Origin: Candidatus Saccharimonadota bacterium
Lineage (GTDB): Bacteria; Patescibacteriota; Saccharimonadia; Saccharimonadales; JAQGHD01
NCBI GenBank assembly: GCA_028288965.1
Contig: JAQGHD010000019.1
Coordinates: forward strand, 25,202 to 89,201
Length of the DNA: 64,000 nt
Direction of reading: 5' to 3'
Below, in pieces: positions 16,523 through 52,767 of this stretch (positions within the stretch are counted from its first letter, which is position 1; each line of letters starts with the position of its first letter). A program made the position numbers and the translations under genes. The notes beneath the pieces are model-generated. The model saw nothing but the letters and a program-made list of their open reading frames with translations, did no database searches and was not told the origin of the DNA.

Positions 16523-17596
16523 ATGCGTTGGCCAATTCTTGGAGGGTTGCTTTTGTTCGCGGCTCTGCCGGCGACGGCTAATTATCAGTTAAACTCATAT
16601 GGATTCGGCAATGGGGGAGTGGCCAATGCGTCGACTTCCAACTACGCGCTAGAGGGCATTAGCGGTGAGATTGGCGGCCAAACCGCCAGCACTGCCACCT
16701 ACCAAGTCAAACCGGGTTTTATTGAAACTCAGCAGTCCAATGTTCCTAAAATCGCGACGTTCGATAACGGCAGCGGCCGCTACTATAACAAGCTGCACTT
16801 TGTCCTAGACCAGCAGAGCAATCCATCTGACGCCACATATGCCTTGCAGATCAGCACTACCAGCGATTTTTCCAGCGGCAATAACTTTGTCAAAAGCGAC
16901 CTAACCATTGGCGCCACGCTCAATACCACCGATTACCAAACGTACGCGGCTTGGGGTGGAGCCAGCGGCTCAAACATTATTGGCCTGGTGCCCAGCACCA
17001 CCTACTACTTGCGGGCCAAAGTGACCCAGGTAAATTCCTTTAGCGGCGTTTCAACCGAAAGCGGCTACGGTCCGGCCAGCTCGGTGGCCACAGTGGGGCC
17101 GAGTCTGTCGTTTGATATTGATGTGTCGGCCATTGACACCTCCACCAGCCCGCCCTTTACCACCAATTTTGGCAACATACTGCCTAGTACCATCACCGAT
17201 AGCCCGCAGAAGATTTGGTTTAGCTTTGATACCAATGCCGTCAGCGGCGGCAGTATTTATATATCGGGGGCCAGCGGCGGGCTTAGGAGCACCCTTCGCT
17301 CCTACACCATCAGTTCGCTCAGCGGCGATTTGTCATCATCGGCCGAAGGTTTTGGGGCCCAAAACTCGTCTGCAACCCAAACTTCTGGCGGGCCAATCGC
17401 CGCCGCTAGTCCTTATAATGTGTCTTCCCAGAACGTCGGGATTATAGACAGCACCGTACGGCCCATGTATTCGGCGACGGCACCGCTGGTAGCCGGGCGG
17501 GTGTCTTTTTTGCTTAAGGCCAAATCCAAAGCCTTAACTCCACAGGCTACGGACTATGCCGAAACGCTTACTACCATTGCCGCCGGGAGTTTTTAG
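16523..17596 (+). CDS. Secreted S/T/G-rich surface protein (paralog 1)
   Basis: Signal peptide. The C-terminus ...ATDYAETLTTIAAGSF matches the C-terminus of the 18266..19360 protein. Confidence 0.5.
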   Translation: MRWPILGGLLLFAALPATANYQLNSYGFGNGGVANASTSNYALEGISGEIGGQTASTATYQVKPGFIETQQSNVPKIATFDNGSGRYYNKLHFVLDQQSNPSDATYALQISTTSDFSSGNNFVKSDLTIGATLNTTDYQTYAAWGGASGSNIIGLVPSTTYYLRAKVTQVNSFSGVSTESGYGPASSVATVGPSLSFDIDVSAIDTSTSPPFTTNFGNILPSTITDSPQKIWFSFDTNAVSGGSIYISGASGGLRSTLRSYTISSLSGDLSSSAEGFGAQNSSATQTSGGPIAAASPYNVSSQNVGIIDSTVRPMYSATAPLVAGRVSFLLKAKSKALTPQATDYAETLTTIAAGSF

Positions 17597-18182
17597 CTGC
17601 CTTATGCATCTGCCAAAACCAAAATTGTCCAGAGGCCGCGTGGTTTTTGGGCTGATCGGCTTCACGGTTATTATTTTTGCCGCAGTAATTGTTAAGCAAT
17701 TCAGCGGGCCGGCTATCGGCACCGTAAACAACAACATCAGTACGACAAACGATACCGCTCAGCACCTGCTGCACTTTGACGCTAAGCAAGCTAGTTTTGA
17801 TTATCAATCAGACTTAAAACAACAGGATAACGCCAAGGCCCAGCCCAATGTGTTGGAATATTACATATTCAACAAGGGGGCAGGTGATCATTCTGCCGCT
17901 GCCTACCTGGCGGTGAGCATTTATGCCCTGCCCAGTGGTAACCCGGACGATAACAGCGGCTTTCATTACCGCAAGCAGCACCCCGAACTGTACAGTTCGC
18001 GCGTGCTAGCCATAAACACCACTAATTTTGTGATTGTGACCAAAAAAGACAGCCATGAAATAGTAGCCTTTTCTACCCATGGCACCAAGTTGGCGGCTAT
18101 ATCACTGACCGCCGCCCTGGCGACCTCGAGCGAGTTGCAGAGTCGGTTCGATGGGGTGCTGAACTCTTGGGCCTGGAAATAA
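17556..18182 (+). CDS. N-terminally membrane-anchored protein
   Basis: 208 aa, single TM (VVFGLIGFTVIIFAAVIV); overlaps the upstream gene by 41 nt. Confidence 0.4.
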   Translation: MPKRLLPLPPGVFSCLMHLPKPKLSRGRVVFGLIGFTVIIFAAVIVKQFSGPAIGTVNNNISTTNDTAQHLLHFDAKQASFDYQSDLKQQDNAKAQPNVLEYYIFNKGAGDHSAAAYLAVSIYALPSGNPDDNSGFHYRKQHPELYSSRVLAINTTNFVIVTKKDSHEIVAFSTHGTKLAAISLTAALATSSELQSRFDGVLNSWAWK

Positions 18183-18265
18183 ACCTATTGACAAGATATC
18201 GGCCATTGTTCAGAATAAGCATAAGCTACAAATAAAAAATACAAAGCTATAATAAATATCACGGT

Positions 18266-19360
18266 ATGTACATGACCATGGCACGCATTTCAAAATTATC
18301 TACCAAAGGCCTATTGTTGGTAGGGCTGTTGCTGTTTGGTATTGTCGGATCGGTAGCAGTGGCGCGCCATGCCGGTGCCACCAATTTAGGGGTAGCCTTT
18401 GTCCGGCTGGATCGCCTGAAAGCCAGCACTGCCACCGGTGGTCGCGTCTGCGCCAAGCCGTCGGTTACCAATCTTGCTTCTGTCGAAGCCAGCGTCCAAG
18501 TGACGTTCCCGACCGGCTTTACGGTCAATACAACCTTTGGCAACTGGACCGTGAACACTTCTAACCTGGACACCGGTCAAACAGCGTGGCCAGGTATCAA
18601 CACCGCCACGGCGGCGGCTGGCCAGGTGGTTACCTTCCCAAGTACCGACCTAAGCTCCAGCTCGCTTACCTATTGTTTTAACTTTGTGGCCACCACGACC
18701 CTGACTAATGGCACGGCAGCAGCTGATCAAACCGGCACCATTACTACCCGCACCAGCGGACTGGCAACCATTGATTCTTCTAACTATGCCCTGGCCACCA
18801 TTTCAGAAGATACTATTTCGGTTACCGGCACCGTACCGGCTTCTTTTAACTTTGCTATCACCAGCTGTACCTCTGGTAGCTGTAACGACAACTTTACCGG
18901 TAACCTGACACCCGGCACGATTGCCGTTACAGCCGGCAAAGCTGTCACTATTACGACTAATGCGACCAACGGCTGGATAGCCTGGGCCAAAGACTTGAAC
19001 CAAGGCTTAACCTCAGCCAACCGCGCGGCCACCATCGCCACGGCGGGGACAGTGGATGGATCTCCGAGTACCCTGGCAACCGGCACCGAAGGCTATGTGC
19101 TCGATACTGACCTCACGACCGATGCGGCCGGCGGCGGCGCCGTGGTGATAAATGGCGAATACAATTACACGGGTACCGTCAATGGCACCACGGGTGGCGG
19201 TGGAACCCTGTCTGGTAACTTCCAGCCGATTGCCTCAGCTAATGGTGCGGCGGCCGGTGATGTTATTACACTCATTGAACGAGCAGCGGTGGGCGGCTTA
19301 ACCAAAGACGCTACCGATTACACCGATCAAATAACCATTGTCGGTGCCGGCCAGTTTTAA
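18266..19360 (+). CDS. Secreted T/G/A-rich surface protein (paralog 2)
   Basis: Signal peptide; C-terminus ...ATDYTDQITIVGAGQF. Confidence 0.5.
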   Translation: MYMTMARISKLSTKGLLLVGLLLFGIVGSVAVARHAGATNLGVAFVRLDRLKASTATGGRVCAKPSVTNLASVEASVQVTFPTGFTVNTTFGNWTVNTSNLDTGQTAWPGINTATAAAGQVVTFPSTDLSSSSLTYCFNFVATTTLTNGTAAADQTGTITTRTSGLATIDSSNYALATISEDTISVTGTVPASFNFAITSCTSGSCNDNFTGNLTPGTIAVTAGKAVTITTNATNGWIAWAKDLNQGLTSANRAATIATAGTVDGSPSTLATGTEGYVLDTDLTTDAAGGGAVVINGEYNYTGTVNGTTGGGGTLSGNFQPIASANGAAAGDVITLIERAAVGGLTKDATDYTDQITIVGAGQF

Positions 19361-38694: not shown

Positions 38695-39510
38695 ATGAAA
38701 ATACTCAATGGCCGCGAATTAGCGGACTATATCAAAGAGCGCCAAGCTCGCCAAGTTCGCAGTTTGCGCCAAGCAAACCAGGTTGTGCCTCGCCTGGCAA
38801 TTATTCAAACCAAGGACGACCCGGTTATTAATACCTATGTGCGACTAAAAAAGCGCTATGGCGCCGACCTTTTAATTGATGTAGATGTGCATTTTGTGCC
38901 GCAACCGGAAGTACCAGCCCTGCTAAATAAGCTCAATTCTGACGTAGCCGTGCACGGCATTATTGTTCAACTGCCGCTAACCGACCCAACTCAGACCGAA
39001 AAAATTGTTAACTTAGTGGCGCCAGACAAAGATGTGGATGCCCTAGGGACTAAGGCACAATTCGATCCGGCTACACCCATGGCCATTATGTGGCTGTTAA
39101 GCGGCTACAATATTGACCTCACGGGTAAAAAAGTGCTGCTCATTGGCCGTGGCAAATTAGTCGGCGCGCCACTAGAGCGGATGCTCAAAGATTCTGGCAT
39201 TGATGTGCAAGTGGTGGAACGCGGTGTCGATAACCTGGCCAAACTTACCCTGGCCGCCGACGTTATTATCACTGCCACGGGCAGTCCGAGCATTTTGTAT
39301 GCAGACATGCTTAAAACCGGCGCTGTGGTGGTGGATGCTGGCGTAGCTAGCGAGGAAGGCAAAACCGTGGGCGATCTGGCTCCAAATGTCTACGAGCGCC
39401 AAGACTTGATAGTTACACCTCAAAAAGGTGGCGTTGGGCCGCTTACGGTCTGCGCTTTATTTGATAACGTGATTCGAGCTGCACGGCGAACGGTAACTAA
39501 AGATTCATAA
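38695..39510 (+). CDS. folD: Bifunctional methylenetetrahydrofolate dehydrogenase / methenyltetrahydrofolate cyclohydrolase
   Basis: 271 aa; family-typical segments (GRGKLVGAPL, ATGSPSIL, VGPLTVCALFDNV). Confidence 0.85.
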   Translation: MKILNGRELADYIKERQARQVRSLRQANQVVPRLAIIQTKDDPVINTYVRLKKRYGADLLIDVDVHFVPQPEVPALLNKLNSDVAVHGIIVQLPLTDPTQTEKIVNLVAPDKDVDALGTKAQFDPATPMAIMWLLSGYNIDLTGKKVLLIGRGKLVGAPLERMLKDSGIDVQVVERGVDNLAKLTLAADVIITATGSPSILYADMLKTGAVVVDAGVASEEGKTVGDLAPNVYERQDLIVTPQKGGVGPLTVCALFDNVIRAARRTVTKDS

Positions 39511-39593
39511 ATAGAAGGCCCAAGTGAGAGAGAAAGCGGAAACGCGGATGCGTCCCAAACTTTCCCTCCCACCTGGAAGCCCCTGTTGCTGCC

Positions 39594-39914
39594 TTACGCC
39601 GCCGTTCTGGATGCCTGCGATCTCGCAGCATGCCACAAGAAATAGGCAAGCGCGGCGAAGATCACACCCAGGATGTTGCGCCAGGTGATTGACCGGAAGA
39701 ATGCCCAAAGCAGGAGCATGGCCGAAGCGAAGTAGAGCACGCAGGTAGCCAGCGCATTCTTCGTCAGTTCGTACGTCTCGTACCCAGCGATCGCGACGAC
39801 CACGGCAAAGAGCACGACGAAAAGTGTGCCGGCGTTGTGGCCAGAAACCAGTTGGTGCACGCTGATGAGGCCGGCGACCAAGGCGGCGATGTAGGTAATG
39901 AACTTGGGACTCAT
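39594..39914 (-). CDS. Small membrane protein (GC-rich segment)
   Basis: 106 aa, 3 hydrophobic helices; local GC content is clearly above that of the flanks. Confidence 0.4.
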   Translation of the reverse strand: MSPKFITYIAALVAGLISVHQLVSGHNAGTLFVVLFAVVVAIAGYETYELTKNALATCVLYFASAMLLLWAFFRSITWRNILGVIFAALAYFLWHAARSQASRTAA

Positions 39915-39939
39915 AACATGTCTCCTTGGTAGGGAACGA

Positions 39940-40248
39940 TCAGCGGCCGGAAGGCCGGACAGGTTGGCGAAGCAGACGACGCTGGTCGCGCACGCGGTTG
40001 CGGTGATCGAGATCGAGTGCCAGCCACATGATGACTGCCATGCCTAGGGCAATGGCTGCGATCGAGGCAGGCCTGAGCACGATGCTGTGAGGTTGGTGAT
40101 CGGCCAGGGCCGAAGCAATCTCGCAGAAGGCCGCGGGCAACAGCAAGCTGAGGCCGGTACGCCGCTTGTTCAGTTTGACGATGCAGACCCATGCCAGAGC
40201 AGCAAATGGGATGGCCAAAACAGCAAAGGCGGTACTGTCACTCATGAA
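39940..40248 (-). CDS. Small membrane protein (GC-rich segment; start at internal Met of the 39940..40335 ORF)
   Basis: MSDSTAFAVLAIPFAALAWVCIV...; hydrophobic. Confidence 0.35.
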   Translation of the reverse strand, partial: FMSDSTAFAVLAIPFAALAWVCIVKLNKRRTGLSLLLPAAFCEIASALADHQPHSIVLRPASIAAIALGMAVIMWLALDLDHRNRVRDQRRLLRQPVRPSGR

Positions 40249-40551
40249 TGAGCACTTCCTTTCCGGTTGGTGTAACAGGGAACTTGTGAAGGTTCTTTGG
40301 AGCAACTGCTCGACAAAGTATAGATATAATGGCATAAAATACTAAAAATATCAATGTTTGGGTGAGGCGACTATACCATGGCAGCAAGTAGACTACGGGC
40401 TTACTATGCCCACATTTTTTATAAGTTGTGCCGAAAATCACAAAGCTTATGCCAATTAGTTCACAGCTATTTTGCTTATGCTGTGGAAAGATTAAGACGG
40501 CTTATGCTTGCTATTCGGAGAAAAGAGGATAAAGATGTGGGGGAGAAAAGC

Positions 40552-40986
40552 ATGAATTCAATCAGTGCGTATGACGTCGCTAACGTCTTTGCTAAGCTGA
40601 CAGATATTGATTCTGGAGAGGTTTTAACGAACCTAAAAATCCAGAAGCTTGTTTACTACGCCCAAGGTTTTCACCTTGCAATGTTTGATAAGCCTCTTTT
40701 TAACGACCCTATTGTTGCGTGGGAGCATGGCCCTGTTGTTGAAGATTTGTACCACAAGCTAAAGGAGCATAAGTCATCACCAGTAATGATAGCTGGCGCA
40801 ATCAACAAAGACATCTCCACTGAACAAATTGAACTCCTTGTAGAGGTCTACGATGTTTACGGTCAGTTTTCAGCATGGAAACTCAGAGACATGACCCATA
40901 ACGAAACTCCTTGGGCAACAACACCAAAAGGTTACGTGATTACTCACGCTAAACTCAAAACATACTTCAAGAATCAGCTCCAGTAA
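40552..40986 (+). CDS. Panacea-domain (DUF4065) protein, antitoxin-like
   Basis: KIQKLVYYAQGFHLAMFDKPLFNDPIVAWEHGPVVEDLY is the hallmark block of the Panacea/SocA-like domain; strong SD GGGGGAG upstream. The ORF-track start at 40378 is probably too far upstream. Confidence 0.6.
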   Translation: MNSISAYDVANVFAKLTDIDSGEVLTNLKIQKLVYYAQGFHLAMFDKPLFNDPIVAWEHGPVVEDLYHKLKEHKSSPVMIAGAINKDISTEQIELLVEVYDVYGQFSAWKLRDMTHNETPWATTPKGYVITHAKLKTYFKNQLQ

Positions 40987-41420
40987 TGGATAGACGGCAT
41001 CCGCCTAAGCCGAAGAAAATGAAGGGCGTTTCGTTCAATCAGTCTCAAGTTAGAGTAGCTGAGTCCGCTAGTGCGCATAAGTCTGACCACCCAATATTTT
41101 GTTTGAGATATTTAGTAAATGGATACGACCTAGAGAAATGTGATAAAGAGCAAGCACACTTCTTCGTGAAGAAACTAGCAAATATGGCTCAATTATCATG
41201 GACAGCATTATTGCTTGGTGACCATAAAAGTGGGCTTGGTTTTGAGCCATTACCCAAGGACCAAATAAAAGCCCCATTGCCTGCAATTGTGACCAAGGAT
41301 ATAACTAGTATGCAAGTTATAAGATTTAAGCGTGACTACAGAATTATAGGTTTCAGGAGTGACGATACCTATAGAATTACACATATAGAGTTAGACAGGA
41401 GTGCTTATGACCACGGTTGA
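40986..41420 (+). CDS. Hypothetical protein, candidate toxin partner (C-terminus faintly RelE/ParE-like)
   Basis: Start overlaps the upstream stop (TAATGG), so co-transcribed with the Panacea gene; C-terminal RIIGFRSDDTYRITHIELDRSAY loosely resembles the RelE/ParE RxIY..d....i.i..HRxdxY end. Confidence 0.3.
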   Translation: MDRRHPPKPKKMKGVSFNQSQVRVAESASAHKSDHPIFCLRYLVNGYDLEKCDKEQAHFFVKKLANMAQLSWTALLLGDHKSGLGFEPLPKDQIKAPLPAIVTKDITSMQVIRFKRDYRIIGFRSDDTYRITHIELDRSAYDHG

Positions 41421-41462
41421 TAAGTATATAATATAGGTATGAGCAAGAAACTATTCAAACGA

Positions 41463-41711
41463 CTAATCAAACGTGCTTCCCAGCCCGTCCCAAAAGAACA
41501 AGGTAAATCGGTACAGTCCTGAAGTTATAATAAAAACAAAACTGGTTAAGGTAAGACTCTGTAGGTACTTCGGGCTAACGGCGTGATGAGTGCCATCTAT
41601 TGACCGCTTTAGTTGGCTCCAAAAGCCCTCGATGGTGTTGGTGTGGACGTTGCCACGTATATATTCAAGCGTTGAATGATTAACCGTTGTGTGGTTGCAG
41701 CCCGCTTGCAT
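41463..41711 (-). pseudogene. IS1595-family transposase remnant (C-terminal fragment only)
   Basis: NTIEGFWSQLKRSIDGTHHAVSPKYLQ is the conserved C-terminal block of IS1595-family DDE transposases; no N-terminal catalytic region is present upstream. Confidence 0.55.
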
Positions 41712-41725
41712 TCAGAAAAATGATT

Positions 41726-41800
41726 CGCTTTCGCTCTTTTGAGCTCATCAGTATGAATACACATTCATAAAACGAAAACGACAAATAGACAGAGATAAAG
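41726..41800. repeat. ~75-bp direct repeat, copy 1 (CGCTTTCGCTCTTTTGAGCTCATCAGTATGAATACACATTCATAAA...)
   Basis: Near-identical to 42794..42868. The two copies flank a ~1-kb GC-rich segment. Confidence 0.8.
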
Positions 41801-41900
41801 ATACACAAAGCAGCCAGGGAGGTGGCAAGGCTTTGATATATCAATATCACTGCCTATTTGCCATTCTCGCTTTACCGAGAACTTTTCTCGACCGTCAGTG

Positions 41901-42566
41901 TCAGTTGGCGTCCTGCACAATAAACCCAAACGTCAGGTCATCTTGGTCGCGGAGGTAAGGGAACAGACCCACGTAGGAGGTGCTCAAGCGCCCGGCCGCG
42001 ATCTTGCTGATGACGCTTTCCAGGTGCTGTTTTGCCCGATCTACGTCTGTAACGCGCGTGTCGATGTCCAAGGCTGCTGCCCGGAGTTCGAGCACGTAGC
42101 CCTTGACACCGTCTAGGTCTGTCAATTCGATGGCTACTTGCCTGGTTGCGTCAGCGAAAGCCTGCTGGTCCATGATCTGTTTGGTGATGTGGCTCATTGG
42201 CGTGAACCTTGCAAGGTTGCTGTTGAAGGTGATGATCACCCGGCGGAATGGCCATTCTGTCTGCGGTGTTGCGAGAACACGCTTGTCTCCACGCAAGGGG
42301 AACAAGTCCAACAGATTCTGGGTCGCCCAATCGATGGTAACCTGAACCCACTCTGCAACGGCAGCTGAATTCGTGACGTTGTCACGATACTCAACCGACA
42401 TGTCAAAACGGTTGATGTTGCAGCCAAAGACGCCGTCATGTTGCATAATGCGACCCCTAAGGGGCAGCACTGCATCGCGGTGATCCTCTGAGTTAAAGGT
42501 GCCTGTCTCTTCGTTGATTCCGGTTATAGCCGTATTGAATTCGAACGTGAGAGTCTGATTGGTCAT
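41901..42566 (-). CDS. Hypothetical protein (221 aa, soluble), GC-rich foreign-looking gene
   Basis: SD AGGAG 7 nt before ATG; high GC and GC3 versus the flanks; no recognisable motif. Confidence 0.45.
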   Translation of the reverse strand: MTNQTLTFEFNTAITGINEETGTFNSEDHRDAVLPLRGRIMQHDGVFGCNINRFDMSVEYRDNVTNSAAVAEWVQVTIDWATQNLLDLFPLRGDKRVLATPQTEWPFRRVIITFNSNLARFTPMSHITKQIMDQQAFADATRQVAIELTDLDGVKGYVLELRAAALDIDTRVTDVDRAKQHLESVISKIAAGRLSTSYVGLFPYLRDQDDLTFGFIVQDAN

Positions 42567-42633
42567 GTTGGCTCCTGCTTCAACTCACCTGACTGTTTGT
42601 CCCAACTGACGTTGGCGCGTATCCATAATGAAC

Positions 42634-42778
42634 ACACAAAGTGAGATACCAAGACGCATGGGTGTCCTAGTAACTCACTTTGTGTTTCTGTCTATTTGTC
42701 AAATAACACCTTTGGAACCCATTGGCTCAACAAAAGCAAACATTATATTACCATATAATCATAAAAAAGTCCACAATC
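42634..42778 (-). promoter_or_regulatory. Conserved leader module copy 1 (putative promoter TGGACT-17-TAATAT, conserved 45-nt block, 11-bp hairpin) upstream of 41901..42566
   Basis: Shares a ~150-nt architecture with 43430..43580: hairpin CACAAAGTGAG/CTCACTTTGTG plus conserved TTGTCAAATAACACCTTTGGAACC.ATTGGCTCAACAAAAGCAA plus AAAAGTCCACA. Confidence 0.5.
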
Positions 42779-42793
42779 TGTTTGGACGGTTAC

Positions 42794-42868
42794 CGCTTTC
42801 GCTCTTTTGAGCTCATCAGTATGAATACACATTCATAAAGCAGAAATGACGACCAGACAGGAGTTTAG
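42794..42868. repeat. ~75-bp direct repeat, copy 2
   Basis: See copy 1. Confidence 0.8.
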
Positions 42869-42946
42869 GGTAGAGGGATGACCACAAGGGTCAAACGTCT
42901 AGTTTCCTAAACTGCTCCCTGATGGTCATTTTTGCGCGCGATAACG

Positions 42947-43378
42947 CTATCCGTTATCGCACAAGCGTGGGGTCTGTTGAGACGCCGGCAGCTTGTTGAA
43001 ACTGAGGATGTTCTTGAACGACGAGAAGAGCGGCACACGCCAACCCTTGATTTGCACGCTGTACGTCGTCTCGGGCTGGATCTTGCCGTAGGCGTCGGCA
43101 GTGTTAAACCGTGTCTTGCCGAACAGCGAGTCCTTCATGACAAACGTGCCACCACTGGTGTAGATGCGGTATTCGCCGCCGTTTTGGGTAGCTACGCGCT
43201 CCTTGCTGCACACCGTCAGCACGCGAGTGCTGATGTGGTTGTAGTTGTGGAAGATGGCAGAGATGCCGACTACGAGGGCCAAAACGACCGCCGCAATGGC
43301 AACTGCACAACCCGCGCCCTGGAAATTCTCTCGACGACGAGCCCGATACTGGTTCGCATCACTAGTTCTCATGGACAT
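42947..43378 (-). CDS. Hypothetical membrane-anchored protein (143 aa; basic N-terminus, one TM, extracytoplasmic domain), GC-rich
   Basis: Very strong SD (GGAGAGGAGAAAGGAAG); TM VAIAAVVLALVVGISAI; the opposite-strand ORF 42932..43507 is low-complexity antisense. Confidence 0.45.
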   Translation of the reverse strand: MSMRTSDANQYRARRRENFQGAGCAVAIAAVVLALVVGISAIFHNYNHISTRVLTVCSKERVATQNGGEYRIYTSGGTFVMKDSLFGKTRFNTADAYGKIQPETTYSVQIKGWRVPLFSSFKNILSFNKLPASQQTPRLCDNG

Positions 43379-43429
43379 AGGGTCTTCCTTTCTCCTCTCC
43401 TCGGCATACAGCCTAAGGTGTTTATCCTA

Positions 43430-43580
43430 AACACACAAGGTGAGGAACAAAAGTACAATAATTATACGTTTGGTGCTCACCTTGTGCTTTGTCTGGTTGT
43501 CAAATAACACCTTTGGAACCGATTGGCTCAACAAAAGCAATGTAGATAATAACATAAAAATGCGCAAAAGTCCACATCTC
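43430..43580 (-). promoter_or_regulatory. Conserved leader module copy 2 upstream of 42947..43378
   Basis: Hairpin CACAAGGTGAG/CTCACCTTGTG (compensatory A-T to G-C change relative to copy 1) plus the same conserved block. Confidence 0.5.
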
Positions 43581-43607
43581 TACAGATGTGCATGCTACAC
43601 TAGGCTC

Positions 43608-44252
43608 ATGAAAATTGGCGTCTTTGACTCGGGGGTAGGGGGCAAATCGGTAGCTAATGCCATCTCTCGGGCGCTGCCGCAGCATCAGGTTATTTTTATG
43701 ATGGATAGCGCCCATTTTCCGTACGCCACAAAAACTCCACAAGAAATTCATGGCTATGTGGTGCCGATACTGACAGACCTGGTGGGGCAGGGGTGTGAGG
43801 TAATAGTGATTGCCTGTAACACCGTGTCTACTAACCTTATTGATGAACTTCGCGAGACTTTGCCAGTGCCGCTAATTGCCATGGAGCCCATGGTCAAGCC
43901 AGCTGCCGAACAGACCAAAAGCAAGGTTATTGTCGTGTGTGCCACACCGACCACCCTGGCTAGCCCACGTTACCAATGGCTCAAAGACACCTACGCGTCA
44001 GGTATAAAAGTGCTGGAACCGGATTGTAGCAACTGGAGCTACATGATTGAGACCAACCAAATAGATAGGCAAAAAATCCACGACCAAATAGACCAAGCCT
44101 GCCAGGCTGGGGCGGATATGATTGTGCTGGGCTGTACCCATTACCACTGGATTGAGGACATTATTACAGAGGTGGTGCAGGGCAGGGCACAGGTGATCCA
44201 GCCGGAGCAGCCGGTGATCGAGCAACTAAAAAAGGTAATGGCTAGTTTATAA
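43608..44252 (+). CDS. murI: Glutamate racemase
   Basis: KIGVFDSGVGG, IACNTVS, LGCTHY motifs; the 43440 start in the ORF track is an upstream extension through the leader module. Confidence 0.8.
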   Translation: MKIGVFDSGVGGKSVANAISRALPQHQVIFMMDSAHFPYATKTPQEIHGYVVPILTDLVGQGCEVIVIACNTVSTNLIDELRETLPVPLIAMEPMVKPAAEQTKSKVIVVCATPTTLASPRYQWLKDTYASGIKVLEPDCSNWSYMIETNQIDRQKIHDQIDQACQAGADMIVLGCTHYHWIEDIITEVVQGRAQVIQPEQPVIEQLKKVMASL

Positions 44253-48769: not shown

Positions 48770-49582
48770 ATGCTTGATGTACAACCCAGAGACGGCTTAA
48801 TGCCAGGTTATGATAATTCGTTCGACAATGAGTCGCGATACGATTTGAGTCAAGAAGAACTTAATCTCCTAGAGACGGAGCTAGTTGAAAAAGCAAGAGC
48901 TATGACGGACCAAGAGTTCTGTGTCGCGTGGGTTACCCCAACTAGTCGGTTTGCTAACTTTATTCGCACCAAAGAAGTAAAAGAATTCCCTGAAGCAGCT
49001 GAAGTTGATGACTACTACGATAACCATCAACTATACTTGGCCTTGATAGACCTGCGGGGCGAAGGTAAGTTAGTTCATGCAGCTTCAATAATGGATTTTG
49101 ACGATCATGCTTCTGATCCCATGGAAGCAACAGAATATGATGAAAGAACAGGCTTTTATACCATTGATAGTTTGATTGCTCGCGGTAATTTTACAAAAGA
49201 TGAGTTTGTAGCTTATTACCAGGCACAAGGGGCAGATCTTGGCTCATCCATCTCAGTAGAAGTCAATTTTAAGATTCGTAAATTAGTAGAGCCTTTCTTG
49301 GGGTTGGGGACTGCTGATCTTGCCTACTTAAGCATATTTAACGCACTTATTGATAAAGGAGCTTCCAGAGAAAACACAGTAGTGTTTGCGTCTATCAATG
49401 AGCAACAAGCAAAATCATTAACGCGCAACGGCTTTAGGTATGCCCCATTAATGGATCGAACAGATTTTGATACAGAAGAGGGCGAGCTGGGTAAAGATTC
49501 GCTACCCGTAGCTATTGATTTTTCCAGCGCATACGATGTACTCGCTCCCTTACAAGTCAAATTAGCAGAAATCCACGTCTAG
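48770..49582 (+). CDS. Hypothetical acidic protein
   Basis: 270 aa; the start abuts the upstream stop. Confidence 0.4.
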   Translation: MLDVQPRDGLMPGYDNSFDNESRYDLSQEELNLLETELVEKARAMTDQEFCVAWVTPTSRFANFIRTKEVKEFPEAAEVDDYYDNHQLYLALIDLRGEGKLVHAASIMDFDDHASDPMEATEYDERTGFYTIDSLIARGNFTKDEFVAYYQAQGADLGSSISVEVNFKIRKLVEPFLGLGTADLAYLSIFNALIDKGASRENTVVFASINEQQAKSLTRNGFRYAPLMDRTDFDTEEGELGKDSLPVAIDFSSAYDVLAPLQVKLAEIHV

Positions 49583-49584
49583 TT

Positions 49585-50481
49585 TTAGGCGCCGCGACTT
49601 ATCCAATATTTCTTAAAGTATTTTGTGGGCACATAAGATTGCTTAGCCTTTTTTAAGCCCGATAAGCCCAAATCTTGTTCCCAGTTGACAATCTTCGACT
49701 TTTTTACCAGCGATTGTGCAGCTTCATTGATTAAGACTACACCAGCGCCTAAATAAACATCGTTGAGTGATTTTTCAAAATGACAGAGGGTATATGTCTT
49801 GTTGATGACTTCATGAATCGAAAATCCATTCAACTTGCCATCTATGCGGCACAAAGTAAGGTGTAAATTGAAGTGGTCAGAATTACTAAGCAATCTATTT
49901 ATGGCAATGTATTCAAGGCGAACCTTTTGTATGGGTTGTGTTGAGTGTTTTTCCCAAGCTCTGAAAATCGCTAACATCTCTTGTTGCAAGCTTGGCGTTA
50001 TTGTATTGGTTGTTGTTGTTTCTAATCTTGATCCTAGGATTTCTTTGGTGCTGTTAAAGAGATTCCTTTTGTTTTTATATTTTTTTCCAGACATATCCGC
50101 TAATTTCTTCAAAAAGTACACATAGTCAAAGCTGCCTCTATCTTCGGCAAGGGCTAATCCACCATGGTGTTTTATGGATCCAATAACTATCTCGGGCACG
50201 AGGTCGAGTTGTGGAACATCATCGAGCAGTATCCTAAGAGAATCATCCATTTTATTTGTTCCGAGTATGGAATATATAAACTGGCCAGCTTTTAAATAAT
50301 CGGGCAGTTTAATGACGAGGTTGTTATTTAGCCAAGCAATCCCTGCTCGACCGTTTGTATTCCAAGAGAACAAGTTAATGAAGCTGAAGTCTGAGTACGG
50401 CTCATACTTATGAGTGAAGTTGGTTATTTCGTCCTGAACCTTTAGATCAATAGGCGAAAAGTTTGGGTATTTTGATATCAC
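49585..50481 (-). CDS. Stand-alone DUF2156-like protein (aminoacyl-PG-synthase C-terminal-domain-like / FemAB-like acyltransferase fold)
   Basis: 298 aa; YSDFSFINLFSW and KKYKNKRNLFNSTK resemble the DUF2156 signature blocks also seen in the MprF C-terminal domain. Confidence 0.4.
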   Translation of the reverse strand: MISKYPNFSPIDLKVQDEITNFTHKYEPYSDFSFINLFSWNTNGRAGIAWLNNNLVIKLPDYLKAGQFIYSILGTNKMDDSLRILLDDVPQLDLVPEIVIGSIKHHGGLALAEDRGSFDYVYFLKKLADMSGKKYKNKRNLFNSTKEILGSRLETTTTNTITPSLQQEMLAIFRAWEKHSTQPIQKVRLEYIAINRLLSNSDHFNLHLTLCRIDGKLNGFSIHEVINKTYTLCHFEKSLNDVYLGAGVVLINEAAQSLVKKSKIVNWEQDLGLSGLKKAKQSYVPTKYFKKYWISRGA

Positions 50482-50571
50482 TAGCGAATTATTATATATG
50501 AATATGAGCCTACATTGCTTTCAAATGTGATATGGCTTGTTCGATTTCTCTGTTATTCTTAGATGTAGCTT

Positions 50572-52767
50572 ATGCTTACCGATTTAGTAATTGCTATAGT
50601 CTGTACCATTATCATGTCCATTCTCGGACTAGTGATAGTGCTTAGAAATCCAAAAAATACGACCAATTTACAGTTTGGCTTTTTGTCATTTTCTATATCT
50701 GCCTGGTCTGTTTTTAACTACTTCTCTGGTGGGAGTTCGACTAATCGTTTAGTATTACAACTTGTTTTCTTCTTTGGGGTACTCACGGCCTATTCCCTGA
50801 TAGTATTTATGCTTAACTTCCCGATTAGTATTTCCGCGAGTCGTTTTATTAGTCGAGTTTTAACATATGCAACGGCCATTATGCTGGTTGTGGTTTTTCT
50901 CCCTGGGTTTATAAAAAACATTACAAAAGATAACATCGAAACAGGCAGTCTATATATTGTTTTTATTGTCTATGCCTTGATCGCTCTCGGTTTACTGGCA
51001 TTCTTAGCATCTGTGCAAATTAGAGCCTCAAAGACTAAAACATCAAAGCAACAAGCAAAGCTCATAGCTCTGGGAGTTATGCTCTATGCTGTGTTTGCGC
51101 TTCTGTCCAATGTCATCATCCCTTTATTTGTTGATAATTGGACAAGCTCAAGGTTTGGTCCCGTTTTTTCACTGTTGCTTGTAGCCATGGTTGCGTACAG
51201 CATTGTGAAGCATAGGCTGTTTGATATTCGATTGATCGTGGCCAGGTTTTTGGCATACGTTCTACTGCTCGCTAGTTTGACTACCACCTACGCGATCATT
51301 GTTTACGCATTTACGCAGAAAATTACTTTCAGGGGCGATCTAAGCTTTATTAAGAATGCGATACCTTTCGTGGCAGCTATATTAATTGCACTCAGTTTCC
51401 AGACTGTAAAAAAATTCTTTGATCGAGTGTCAAACAAATATTTTTATCAAGACGCTTATGACCCGCAGCTGTTTCTTGATGAACTAAATAAAATACTTGT
51501 TTCAACAATTGAAATTAAGACTTTGCTGGAGAAAGTAGCTGACCAAATAAACCTCAATCTTAAATCTCAGTTTGCAATATTTAGTATCAAAAGTACTCCT
51601 CACACTGATAGCCGTAGTGCTGGTAGTCCAGGCACGTTACGGGTAGATAGCGATGGTGTTCATGAAGTAATTACTGCCATGAGTAGCCTCAGACAAAAAA
51701 TTATAGTTGCCGATGATATTGAGGATGAAGCAAACTTAAAGAAATTATTAACTAAACATAATATTGCCATGCTTCTCCGATTAACAAGTTCTGGAAAAGA
51801 TTCAAAAGAAAGTGTTGGCTACTTGTTGCTGGGCGCCAAAAAAAGTGGCAGTCCTTATAGCAACAATGACACAAAAATTATGGGCATTATCACCAATGAG
51901 TTAGTCATCGCCATTCAAAATGCGCTACGTTTTGAGGAGATCCAGCAATTCAACCTGACCTTGCAGCAGAAAGTGGACGATGCCACACACAAACTTCGGC
52001 AGACCAACGAAAAACTGAGGCAACTGGATGAGACCAAGGACGAGTTCATTAGCATGGCTTCGCACCAACTGCGAACGCCGTTAACTAGTGTGAAGGGCTA
52101 TGTCAGCATGGTGCTGGAAGGTGACGCCGGTAAGGTGAGCAAATCGCAAAAAGATCTGCTGAATCAAGCGTTTACGAGTAGTCAGCGCATGGTTTACTTG
52201 ATTGCAGATCTGCTCAACGTCTCACGTTTGCGCACCGGAAAATTTGTGATTGACGCCAAACCTACAAACTTGGCTGATGTAGTACAAGGTGAAATCGGTC
52301 AGCTGATAGAAACTGCTAAAGGCCGTAACTTGGAGCTAACCTACCACAAGCCAGACCACTTCCCTGTGCTAAATCTGGACGATACTAAAACCCGCCAGGT
52401 AATTATGAACTTTATAGATAACGCCATTTATTACACCCCTGCCAAAGGGCATATTAAGGTGAATTTGGCCGAGAGCGATGATGCCGTCGAGTTCACGGTG
52501 GTTGATAATGGCTTGGGTGTGCCTAAAGCTGAACAGCACCATTTATTTACCAAGTTTTATCGGGCTGGTAATGCCAAAAAAGCCCGGCCAGATGGCACGG
52601 GACTGGGACTATTTATGGCCAGAAAAGTTATTGTCGCCGAAGGGGGCGCCGTGATCTTTAAGAGTGAAGAAGGCAAGGGCAGTACCTTTGGCTTTAGCTT
52701 CCCCAAGTCCAAGTTGCTGGTACATGACAGCCCCGCCAAAAATTCTCCAGCCGTTGCTACCAAGTAA
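50572..52767 (+). CDS. Sensor histidine kinase with multi-TM N-terminal sensor, central GAF-like region, HisKA + HATPase_c
   Basis: About 7 TM helices; H-box ISMASHQLRTPLTSVKGY; N-box NFIDNAIYYT; G-boxes DNGLGV and GTGLGLFMARKV. Confidence 0.8.
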   Translation: MLTDLVIAIVCTIIMSILGLVIVLRNPKNTTNLQFGFLSFSISAWSVFNYFSGGSSTNRLVLQLVFFFGVLTAYSLIVFMLNFPISISASRFISRVLTYATAIMLVVVFLPGFIKNITKDNIETGSLYIVFIVYALIALGLLAFLASVQIRASKTKTSKQQAKLIALGVMLYAVFALLSNVIIPLFVDNWTSSRFGPVFSLLLVAMVAYSIVKHRLFDIRLIVARFLAYVLLLASLTTTYAIIVYAFTQKITFRGDLSFIKNAIPFVAAILIALSFQTVKKFFDRVSNKYFYQDAYDPQLFLDELNKILVSTIEIKTLLEKVADQINLNLKSQFAIFSIKSTPHTDSRSAGSPGTLRVDSDGVHEVITAMSSLRQKIIVADDIEDEANLKKLLTKHNIAMLLRLTSSGKDSKESVGYLLLGAKKSGSPYSNNDTKIMGIITNELVIAIQNALRFEEIQQFNLTLQQKVDDATHKLRQTNEKLRQLDETKDEFISMASHQLRTPLTSVKGYVSMVLEGDAGKVSKSQKDLLNQAFTSSQRMVYLIADLLNVSRLRTGKFVIDAKPTNLADVVQGEIGQLIETAKGRNLELTYHKPDHFPVLNLDDTKTRQVIMNFIDNAIYYTPAKGHIKVNLAESDDAVEFTVVDNGLGVPKAEQHHLFTKFYRAGNAKKARPDGTGLGLFMARKVIVAEGGAVIFKSEEGKGSTFGFSFPKSKLLVHDSPAKNSPAVATK

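Follow-up and report, generated by a model that had tools for sequence, protein, structure and literature searches.

The window analyzed here is a 64,000-nt stretch of the genome of a Candidatus Saccharimonadota bacterium (order Saccharimonadales; contig JAQGHD010000019.1, positions 25,202 to 89,201). Between the housekeeping genes folD and murI it contains direct repeats, noticed in an initial annotation of the region, which are RNA elements framing two unrelated small genes, g1 and g2. Each gene is preceded by a promoter and a structured leader and followed by a long hairpin and a type III hammerhead ribozyme. It is quite likely that the folD-murI interval represents a composite insertion that includes two such hammerhead cassettes, arranged in tandem, as self-contained expression units. 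The cassettes have a defined architecture, and their elements are conserved around unrelated open reading frames (ORFs) in other loci. The catalytic core of the ribozyme is invariant, and covariation is seen in the ribozyme, in the leader hairpin P1, and between a leader box and a trailer located on either side of the ORF.

Two tandem cassettes

The initial annotation listed a single pair of ~75-bp direct repeats. The repeats are there, but they form two interleaved pairs. Pair Y (41726-41792 and 42794-42860) is 67 nt long and 90% identical, with 46 nt identical; pair X (42631-42775 and 43430-43576) covers ~146 nt at ~80% identity and includes a 44-nt stretch with 1 mismatch. The resulting layout is IS remnant/Y-g1-X/Y-g2-X/murI, the first element being the stump of an IS1595 transposase gene. 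No further copy of the X and Y cores was found in the 64-kb window (0 chance matches expected), and scans of viral contigs with exact and degenerate X/Y patterns gave no match.

Read on the minus strand, each cassette consists of a sigma-70-type promoter, a hairpin (P0), the leader box, a second hairpin (P1), a Shine-Dalgarno sequence, the ORF, the 3' hairpin, and the hammerhead, which starts 3-5 nt after the trailer. The promoters are TGGACT-17-TAATAT in cassette 1 and TGGACT-17-TATTAT in cassette 2. The cassette 2 ribozyme ends ~19 nt upstream of the cassette 1 -35 element. The most identical segments between the two units are these junction pieces, namely the hammerhead (46/46 nt) and the P0 region (43/44 nt), and the similarity stops exactly at the -35 element on one side and at the last helix of the ribozyme on the other.

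The first clue to this organization came from two g1 homologs (41% and 39% identity) with flanks that resemble X and Y. Their upstream flank contains a promoter, TTGACAAGyAGACAG, and a hairpin, ACAAAGTGAG...CTCACTTTGT. The downstream flank contains CTGTCTGCTTGTC, a hairpin, and then CTGATGAG-stem-CGAAA-GCGAA, which is the catalytic core of a hammerhead. Elsewhere, the same frame encloses ORFs of 100-230 aa that are mutually unrelated and encode soluble acidic, lipoprotein-like, or multi-pass membrane proteins. The ORF is in the sense orientation to the promoter and the ribozyme in 14/14 cassettes. Tandem arrays are present in the window and in loci L017, L083, L092, and L102, and several loci have two or three units. 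The neighborhoods of the metagenome cassettes look chromosomal rather than prophage-like, with genes for ABC transporters, pilin-like proteins, DNA ligase, and glycosyltransferases.

Some of these loci display variations on the arrangement. L017, from a Saccharimonadales genome, contains two tandem variant cassettes (17540-19001, plus strand) with membrane-protein ORFs of 98 and 172 aa. They have a TTGACA-17-TAATAT promoter, a shared 3' untranslated region (UTR), a type III hammerhead, and a different, shorter leader. Past the second ribozyme there is another promoter of this kind, the third in the array. In L083 (863-1437, minus strand), which has two tandem leaders, a 112-aa ORF comes after the first, but the covariance model R1 (described below) detects no hammerhead there; the ribozyme of this unit may have been lost, or a different element may serve in its place. 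In L081 (5493-5580), a tRNA-Asp(GTC) gene lies immediately ahead of the cassette, which begins 3 nt past it. The next small minus-strand gene of that locus (6580-6960) lies between copies of a further short direct repeat, AAAGTTCTAAC...TCCG, a motif that also occurs ahead of the cassette promoter in L082.

Hammerhead ribozymes

Searches with the Rfam family Hammerhead_3 (RF00008), run in E-value mode, aligned the full CUGAUGAG...CGAAA core in both window copies. The core was also aligned in 12 other loci at 27-41 bits, with the best relative at 41.2 bits. A metagenome scan with a trailer-plus-core pattern retrieved 21 loci, ~17 of them clearly homologous, and at least 22 homologous ribozymes were found in metagenomes and in another Saccharimonadales genome. 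All distinct sequences (20/20) parse as canonical type III hammerheads, with a helix III of 5-8 bp, a U-H cleavage site, a helix I of 7 bp, and a helix II of 4-5 bp. The catalytic core, CUGAUGA/helix II/GAAA, is found in both window copies and is invariant in the 20 aligned homologs. U16.1 pairs with A15.1 in every one of the 20, and the H of the cleavage site is C, U, or A. Cleavage is predicted 3' of U41770 in cassette 1 and 3' of U42838 in cassette 2. A hammerhead split by the ORF was considered and dropped, as the ribozyme is complete and local.

In the alignment of these 20 sequences, 93% of the cells pair, rising to 100% in helices I and II. Compensatory changes are seen in 16/20 pairs and in all three helices; the observed values were reached by 0/500 shuffles, and the signal was lost when the pairing partners were slid. 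A covariance model built from the aligned hammerheads, R1, detected no window copies other than the two already described. In L092 and L102 it recovered additional copies, and in L017 two, which end the two variant cassettes that encode membrane proteins. By direct reading, the second L017 copy deviates from the core in having CUGACGA, a change at what we take to be a variable hammerhead position, and in the ribozyme of the second L092 cassette (L092c2) the closing pair of helix II is a mismatch. A literature search found no paper linking hammerheads to Saccharimonadales.

Leader, trailer, and 3' hairpin

The leader box, TTGACAAnnAGACAG, is a single-stranded segment of 13-15 nt between P0 and P1. 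Its 13 nt just ahead of P1 are complementary to the trailer just ahead of the ribozyme, 450-900 nt away. Among 12 distinct cassettes, 92% of the cells of this pairing are complementary and four positions are compensated; there are 9 double-change cells versus 2.7 expected, and 0/500 shuffles reach 9. The most divergent pair of boxes, in L092c2, has GATAAGTAGAAAG versus CTTTCTACTTATC and is perfectly complementary. An alternative assignment of the leader box as a -35 promoter element was rejected, there being no -10 element at the right spacing. Hairpin P1 shows the same kind of signal, with 94.6% of its cells pairing, 8/11 pairs compensated, and many G-U pairs that are possible on the sense strand only.

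On the 3' side, the hairpin and the hammerhead fold together with a free energy of -59.1 kcal/mol in cassette 1 (z = -8.3); the z score in cassette 2 is -5.4. A terminator scan of the minus strand found no terminator-like site downstream of g1 and g2.

The segment from the P1 3' arm to the start codon matches the RAGATH-10 motif (RF03147; gathering threshold, 41.2 bits) in related cassettes, above the threshold in the first cassette of L102 (L102c1; 43.5 bits) and below it in L092c2 (32.3 bits). In the window, the match is below the threshold in cassette 2 (18.8 bits, E = 2.6, 43387-43449, minus strand), and there is none in the cassette 1 leader. The outer helix of RAGATH-10 pairs CCUCAUCU with GGAUGAGG at the ribosome-binding site. 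Alternatively, the CCUCAUCU strand pairs with the upstream arm within P1. Folded with the P1 5' arm, the window leaders form P1 and leave the ribosome-binding site largely free; folded without it, both have the ribosome-binding site paired with the P1 3' arm in a RAGATH-10-type structure. Given this three-segment alternative pairing in the folding models, the leader is probably a translational switch.

Cargo of the cassettes

The g1 product has a tandem ferredoxin-like fold in its AlphaFold model. In a search of 5.8 billion protein clusters, its only direct homologs besides itself were the two mentioned above, both of which carry the same leader and ribozyme. A profile search extends the family to 98 cluster representatives. 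A structure search returned only generic ACT/HMA-type fold matches (TM 0.2-0.3) and no informative neighbor. Neither g1 nor g2 has a Pfam family above the threshold.

The g2 product has an N-terminal transmembrane segment and a "secreted protein" domain, as well as a weak match to DUF1523. Its tblastn relatives are found in 97 phage records, mostly from phages of Gordonia, Mycobacterium, Streptomyces, and Arthrobacter. The likeness of g2 to secreted proteins of actinobacteriophages is of note, as Actinobacteria are the hosts on which Saccharibacteria live. Both g1 and g2 are accessory genes. A 191-aa ORF runs antisense to g2 (42932-43507, plus strand); with a GC content at third codon positions (GC3) of 0.49 versus 0.73 for g2, it is very probably not a gene. 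The features of the interval and of its flanks are collected in Table 1.

Table 1. Features of the folD-murI interval and its flanks in window coordinates
Feature	Coordinates	Strand	Evidence and details
folD, left conserved flank	38695..39510	+	Pfam PF00763 THF_DHG_CYH and PF02882 THF_DHG_CYH_C
m106, small predicted membrane protein	39594..39914	-	ORF; GC3-rich
m131, small predicted membrane protein, in tandem with m106	39940..40335	-	ORF; start probably Met31, ~40245
PanA-type antitoxin candidate, Panacea/SocA-like domain	40552..40986	+	PF13274; Shine-Dalgarno sequence and ATG at 40552
Partner ORF, 144 aa, putative toxin	40986..41420	+	ATGA overlap with PanA stop codon; phrog_8366, E = 3.5e-19
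IS1595-family transposase C-terminal remnant, 82-aa ORF	41463..41711	-	PF12762, E = 5.6e-14; NF033547
Type III hammerhead, cassette 1	41724..41776	-	RF00008, 23.7 bits, E = 0.05; R1, 88.7 bits; centroid fold shows helices I-III
3' UTR hairpin, cassette 1	41780..41866	-	5' arm box 41850-41862; trailer box CTGTCTATTTGTC 41780-41792
g1, 221-aa cassette cargo, tandem ferredoxin-like fold	41901..42566	-	ORF; AlphaFold model, pLDDT 95
Promoter and structured leader, cassette 1	42567..42773	-	Folds; P1 and leader-trailer covariation
Leader elements, cassette 1		-	-35 42768-42773; -10 42745-42750; P0 hairpin 42707-42737; leader box 42688-42702; P1 hairpin 42634-42685; Shine-Dalgarno 42570-42576
Type III hammerhead, cassette 2	42793..42843	-	RF00008, 29.8 bits, E = 9e-4, full core aligned; R1, 86.9 bits
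3' UTR hairpin, cassette 2	42848..42931	-	Trailer box 42848-42860; local partner 42915-42929
g2, 143-aa cassette cargo, N-terminal transmembrane segment, "secreted protein" domain	42947..43378	-	phrog_301, E = 1.7e-15
Promoter and structured leader, cassette 2	43379..43574	-	Promoter scan; folds with and without P1 5' arm
Leader elements, cassette 2		-	-35 43569-43574; -10 43546-43551; leader box 43489-43503; P1 43433-43487; RAGATH-10-like segment 43387-43449; Shine-Dalgarno 43384-43395
Promoter-like site TTGGCT-16-GATAAT	43523..43550	+	Promoter scan; inside cassette 2 leader, antisense; duplicate at 42722-42749
murI, right conserved flank	43608..44252	+	PF01177 Asp_Glu_race; ATG start; synteny with murD and response regulator in relatives

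A lineage-specific insertion between folD and murI

The comparison set consisted of 80 species-representative Saccharimonadales loci with folD, and folD-murD synteny and distance were compared in 75 loci. Identity of the window folD to those of the 80 loci is 63-77%, and nearly all of them are labeled Candidatus Saccharibacteria or Saccharimonadales. The nearest relative available, from the search of 5.8 billion protein clusters, is 82% identical in FolD, and none is at the strain level.

The order folD(+), murI(+), murD(-), response regulator(-) is kept in the 75 relatives, and murI usually follows folD directly, abutting or overlapping it. The folD-to-murD distance is ~590-720 bp, with murI alone, in 45/75 relatives and 0-30 bp in 6/75. 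It is ~1.2 kb in 8/75, which have a ~185-aa ORF ahead of murI, and ~1.3 kb in about 13/75, where a ~430-aa minus-strand ORF replaces murI. The remaining relatives show a few other states, and the non-compact distances span 1.2-1.8 kb overall. In the window, the same distance is 4,732 bp, and the actual murI start, ATG 43608, leaves a folD-murI gap of 4,097 bp. The seven cargo proteins had zero tblastn matches in the folD loci of the 75 relatives, and blastn of X, Y, and the whole island against the 80 loci revealed no DNA similarity. With both the cargo genes and the island DNA absent from these loci, the island is a lineage-specific insertion. The murI gene is now 4.1 kb away from folD, and the only candidate promoter that the scan found upstream of it, at 43523-43550, may drive it.

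The ~185-aa ORF, which has no Pfam match, lies between folD and murI in L001 (10806-11378), L006, L036, L039, L058, L068, L070, and L075, at the same junction as the island in the window. In the closest FolD relative, L106 (82%), folD is followed by a 66-aa ORF, an ABC ATPase, and a 502-aa ORF and is preceded by BacA and DUF1761 genes. As these neighbors differ on both sides of folD, gene order there is not fixed in the nearest known lineage. In the second-closest relative, L107 (79%), the arrangement is the compact canonical one, and murI overlaps folD.

The ~430-aa minus-strand ORF, which is conserved, also has no Pfam match. It stands in place of murI, between folD and murD, in L014 (976-2283, minus strand), L002, L010, L020, L023, L026, L035, L040, L049, L050, L057, L072, L074, and L079. 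MurD in the relatives with this ORF is less like the window MurD (43-53% versus 55-65% identity). The ORF may belong to an alternative D-glutamate route of the MurD2/MurL type. Two further features of the window lie beyond murI. A Ham1-family gene (PF01725; 45643-46221, plus strand) separates murD from the response regulator gene; since these two are adjacent in nearly all relatives, the Ham1 gene is a second small lineage-specific insertion. An AT-rich stretch at 49000-52000 (GC content, 0.37-0.40) encodes a second, shorter LPG_synthase_C protein (49585-50481, minus strand), adjoining a 7TM histidine kinase (50572-52767), and may be another acquired block.

Composition and the other modules

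The items that the initial annotation placed in the interval were all confirmed, at or close to the positions given there. The brackets folD and murI are supported by Pfam matches and by synteny in relatives, and the presence of at least four compositionally distinct blocks between them is borne out by GC content in 300-nt windows and by GC3. GC content is 0.57-0.61 at 39500-40300, 0.38-0.43 at 40200-41800, 0.54-0.57 at 41800-42500, 0.41-0.44 at 42500-42900, and 0.55-0.57 at 42900-43400. GC3 splits the blocks more sharply than plain GC content, with values of 0.77 for m106, 0.66-0.69 for m131, 0.67 for g1, and 0.73 for g2, as against 0.44 for PanA and 0.38 for its partner; folD, murI, murD, and mprF are at 0.50-0.58. 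The pair of GC-rich small membrane-protein genes (39594-40335, minus strand), the AT-rich Panacea gene with its overlapping ORF (PF13274; ATGA at 40986), the C-terminal IS1595 remnant, and the two GC-rich genes of unassigned function, g1 and g2, all stand as described. The high GC3 of g1, g2, m106, and m131 would fit a GC-richer source gene pool. However, the full 64-kb window ranges from 0.37 to 0.62 in GC content per kb, so that the patchiness is not confined to the folD-murI interval and composition by itself is weak evidence. The origins of the blocks also differ: the relatives of the PanA pair are in Escherichia and Pseudomonas phages and those of g2 mainly in actinophages, and an IS remnant is present as well.

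The two membrane-protein genes have a terminator-like hairpin downstream of m106 (39539-39556). For m106, searches of Pfam, PHROG, PADLOC, and NCBIfam gave no family, and the 5.8 billion clusters contain no homolog; m131 had zero family matches in the same four collections. A weak 29-nt repeat common to both genes suggests that they are distant paralogs.

PanA has a Panacea domain (PF13274; E = 5.9e-23, 82.4 bits versus the Pfam threshold of 25.7). The longest ORF starts at 40378, and its phrog_1281 match (E = 5e-43) begins at residue 58; the true start is likely 40552. The protein does not reach the NCBIfam SocA cutoff (60.5 bits versus 190). Relatives of the partner ORF are found at 27-33% identity in 12 phage records (Escherichia, Pseudomonas, and Salmonella). 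In the two of these in which the upstream neighbor was inspected, phage EC.P3 and phage CF60a, the partner homolog lies 5-10 nt downstream of a 147-aa Panacea ORF (E ~1e-24). Judged by domain content and gene order, PanA and its partner are a two-gene module of the PanA type, conserved in temperate phages of Proteobacteria, and the partner is presumably toxic. As in known PanA-PanT pairs, including SocAB, a Panacea protein is translationally coupled to a small adjacent ORF, and the pairing is kept in phages. The window pair differs from those in that its partner lacks both a Pfam family and a solved structural relative, and in that the SocA cutoff is missed.

The IS1595 remnant covers only profile positions 93-142 of 153 of PF12762 and matches NCBIfam transpos_IS1595 with E = 2e-13. 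The N-terminal side of the transposase is cut exactly at the start of cassette 1, which replaces the N-terminal part. A complete IS1595 element, with a full DDE transposase and terminal inverted repeats, is not present.

Integration hotspot or defense island

The interval had been described in the initial annotation as an integration hotspot or defense island, a description that is supported in part. That the folD-murI junction is a preferred landing site, with mobile or defense cargo differing from strain to strain, is possible but doubtful. None of the 75 relatives shares the insertion, whose parts, among them an IS remnant and a toxin-antitoxin-like pair, have at least four different origins. 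Eight relatives carry the ~185-aa ORF at the same junction, and L106 has an ABC-transporter pair downstream of folD instead. However, most relatives have murI alone or simple alternatives, without mobile or defense genes, and L106, where both sides of folD are changed, may have undergone a rearrangement instead of receiving other cargo. The scanned ORFs of at least 150 aa within ~10 kb on either side include no integrase or recombinase, no tRNA gene is nearby, and no repeat bounds the island. The comparison across the 75 relatives thus upholds conserved flanks, unique cargo, and a lineage-specific mosaic insertion, and it contradicts the conservation of the same gene set in all relatives, which had been named as the finding that would speak against a hotspot. 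It reveals only a few simple states (no murI, murI alone, the ~185-aa ORF plus murI, or the ~430-aa ORF in place of murI), and neither diverse cargo in relatives nor an integrase, att repeats, or a tRNA target was found. We read the interval as a real composite insertion and the hotspot as a possibility.

As for defense, a PADLOC scan gave a single weak match (NsnC, 2.9e-5), which is to the PanA partner. The label of defense island therefore rests on one toxin-antitoxin-like pair, with no other defense system detected in that scan.

Are the repeats DNA or RNA elements?

The tandem single-ORF units, each followed by an 83-87-nt imperfect palindrome, would also be expected if the repeats were DNA recombination sites, either integron-like attC palindromes or modules with 13-nt terminal inverted repeats that are moved or inverted in trans. 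The 13-nt inverted repeats that flank each ORF and covary within a unit, the near identity of the junction pieces, and the adjoining IS remnant point in the same direction. Still, we regard this explanation as unlikely. The post-ORF segment has an invariant hammerhead core, strand-specific G-U pairs, and compensation in three helices, none of which is needed by a DNA site. By direct reading, the boxes GACAAGCAGAC and GTCTGCTTGTC misfit the integron R''/R' consensus (RYYYAAC/GTTRRRY), and no integrase was found in the ORFs scanned within ~10 kb. No inverted state was seen, all 14 cassettes having the ORF in the sense orientation, and the similarity between units ends at a -35 element and at the last helix of a ribozyme. 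Duplication of an att site by a single integrative element and an inverton were also considered and set aside.

A local tandem duplication of an intergenic segment, with fortuitous hammerhead likeness and no RNA function, would agree with the below-threshold Rfam matches and with the near identity of the window copies in the core, from which little covariation can come, but it is highly improbable and already contradicted by comparative data: at least 17 independent metagenome contigs, together with another Saccharimonadales genome, contain homologs of these elements around ORFs that are unrelated to each other, every hammerhead helix shows compensatory changes, and the g1 homologs at 39-41% identity carry the same leader and ribozyme.

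Several observations weigh against the interpretation of the cassettes as hammerhead-containing expression units. Both window ribozymes score below the RF00008 gathering threshold (29.8 and 23.7 versus 48.5 bits), and at gathering thresholds Rfam detects only tRNAs. The self-cleavage of the window ribozymes is a prediction from sequence, and more efficient cleavage triplets than theirs (UUU and CUU) exist. The sequences behind the covariation are few (12-20) and related, and fitting the alignments manually to the proposed structures works in favor of those structures. The promoters are consensus matches; the scan picks up one of the two cassette promoters, that of cassette 2, and its total of 5 sites compares with 5.2 expected from shuffled sequence. 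The trailer has a stronger local partner ~65-75 nt upstream, with which it forms a very stable 3' hairpin, so that the leader-trailer pairing may never form in RNA, and the covariation of the two boxes could have arisen at the level of DNA, for instance through gene conversion or terminal inverted repeats. The roles of the leader as a switch and of the hairpin in 3'-end protection are drawn from structure only. Finally, most metagenome cassettes have no assigned host taxonomy.

Proposed mechanism

In the reading that we favor, with two hammerhead cassettes inside a composite insertion, the 4.1-kb interval in this soil or groundwater Saccharimonadales genome would have been assembled from at least four separately acquired modules. 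The first is a putative operon of the two small membrane-protein genes, ending in what appears to be an ordinary intrinsic terminator; the second, the candidate PanA antitoxin with its overlapping 144-aa partner; the third, the 3' stump of an IS1595 transposase gene; and the fourth, the two single-gene hammerhead cassettes in tandem on the minus strand. The ribozyme would cut the nascent RNA just past the 3' hairpin. The cut would produce a defined, hairpin-protected 3' end with a 2',3'-cyclic phosphate, substituting for a terminator, and would also insulate each cassette from read-through into the next. In the leader, the P1 3' arm would have two possible partners: the P1 5' arm, in which case the ribosome-binding site is free, and the GAUGAGG-like segment at that site, which gives a RAGATH-10-type fold. 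Through base pairing between the leader box and the trailer, this switch may be coupled to completion or processing of the 3' end.

A more far-reaching scheme, in which the cassettes yield protein-coding circular RNAs, has a slim chance of being correct. Read-through from cassette 2 into cassette 1 and cuts at both ribozymes would give a 1,068-nt RNA with 5'-OH and 2',3'-cyclic-phosphate ends. A hybrid helix III could then re-form between the cassette 1 5' strand UUCGUU and the cassette 2 3' strand AGCGG, and an RtcB-type ligase could seal the ends, as with retrozymes and viroid-like RNAs. Leader-trailer pairing and the P1/anti-Shine-Dalgarno switch would gate translation of the circular or end-paired mRNA. 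In a milder form, the cassettes could be a portable expression format in Saccharibacteria, in which cleavage and 5'-3' pairing would license translation of completed transcripts only.

Comparison with known systems

The closest counterparts of the window ribozymes are the bacterial hammerheads of RF00008, with which they share the core, the three-helix topology, the position of the cleavage site, and adjacent short ORFs, often several per locus. They differ in scoring below the gathering threshold, in their hosts, Saccharimonadales of the candidate phyla radiation, and in their chromosomal-looking surroundings. Also unlike the known cases, the cassettes have one ribozyme per gene, always 3' and directly after a long hairpin. 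Bacterial type III hammerheads flank small nonconserved ORFs, and why they do so is an acknowledged open question (PMC6155905, PMC6765202). A role in mRNA processing has been suggested for them (PMC6765202), and ribozyme-made mRNA 3' ends in the cassettes would agree with that suggestion. The RNA motifs near such genes are mostly still orphans (PMC11061315).

One of those motifs, RAGATH-10, corresponds to the segment between P1 and the start codon, with a score above the gathering threshold in L102c1, but the motif model omits the upstream half of the leader (P0, the leader box, and the P1 5' arm). In the cassettes, the omitted half is a rival pairing partner for the same strand and is connected to the 3' trailer. 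The window leaders themselves match the motif weakly (cassette 2) or not at all (cassette 1).

Like integron cassettes and phage morons, the hammerhead cassettes are compact single-gene units, arranged head to tail, with diverse accessory ORFs and a structured post-ORF element. Individual units come with a promoter and a 3' end signal of their own, as morons do. In contrast to integron cassettes, the conserved element is an RNA ribozyme rather than attC; no integrase was found, and the attC consensus is absent. In contrast to both, the 3' end would be produced by the predicted self-cleavage and not by a terminator. Retrozymes and viroid-like circular RNAs resemble the window array in that tandem hammerheads 1,068 nt apart would release a unit-length RNA. 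However, the cassettes are encoded in the DNA of a bacterial chromosome, have protein-coding cargo, and show no reverse transcriptase and no sign of circles or replication. Ribozymes also serve as synthetic insulators, such as RiboJ, and the likeness there is that a ribozyme placed between expression units insulates them from each other.

The cassettes are thus a further member of the known class of ribozyme-associated genes, now documented in Saccharibacteria, whose genomes are tiny and have few accessory genes, those few probably mattering for life on their hosts. They provide a compact and complete picture of one hammerhead-associated unit, with its elements in a fixed order, so that a vague association between ribozymes and genes becomes specific and experimentally addressable. 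For genome annotation, they show that repeats within an "island" can be unannotated ribozymes that lie below Rfam thresholds.

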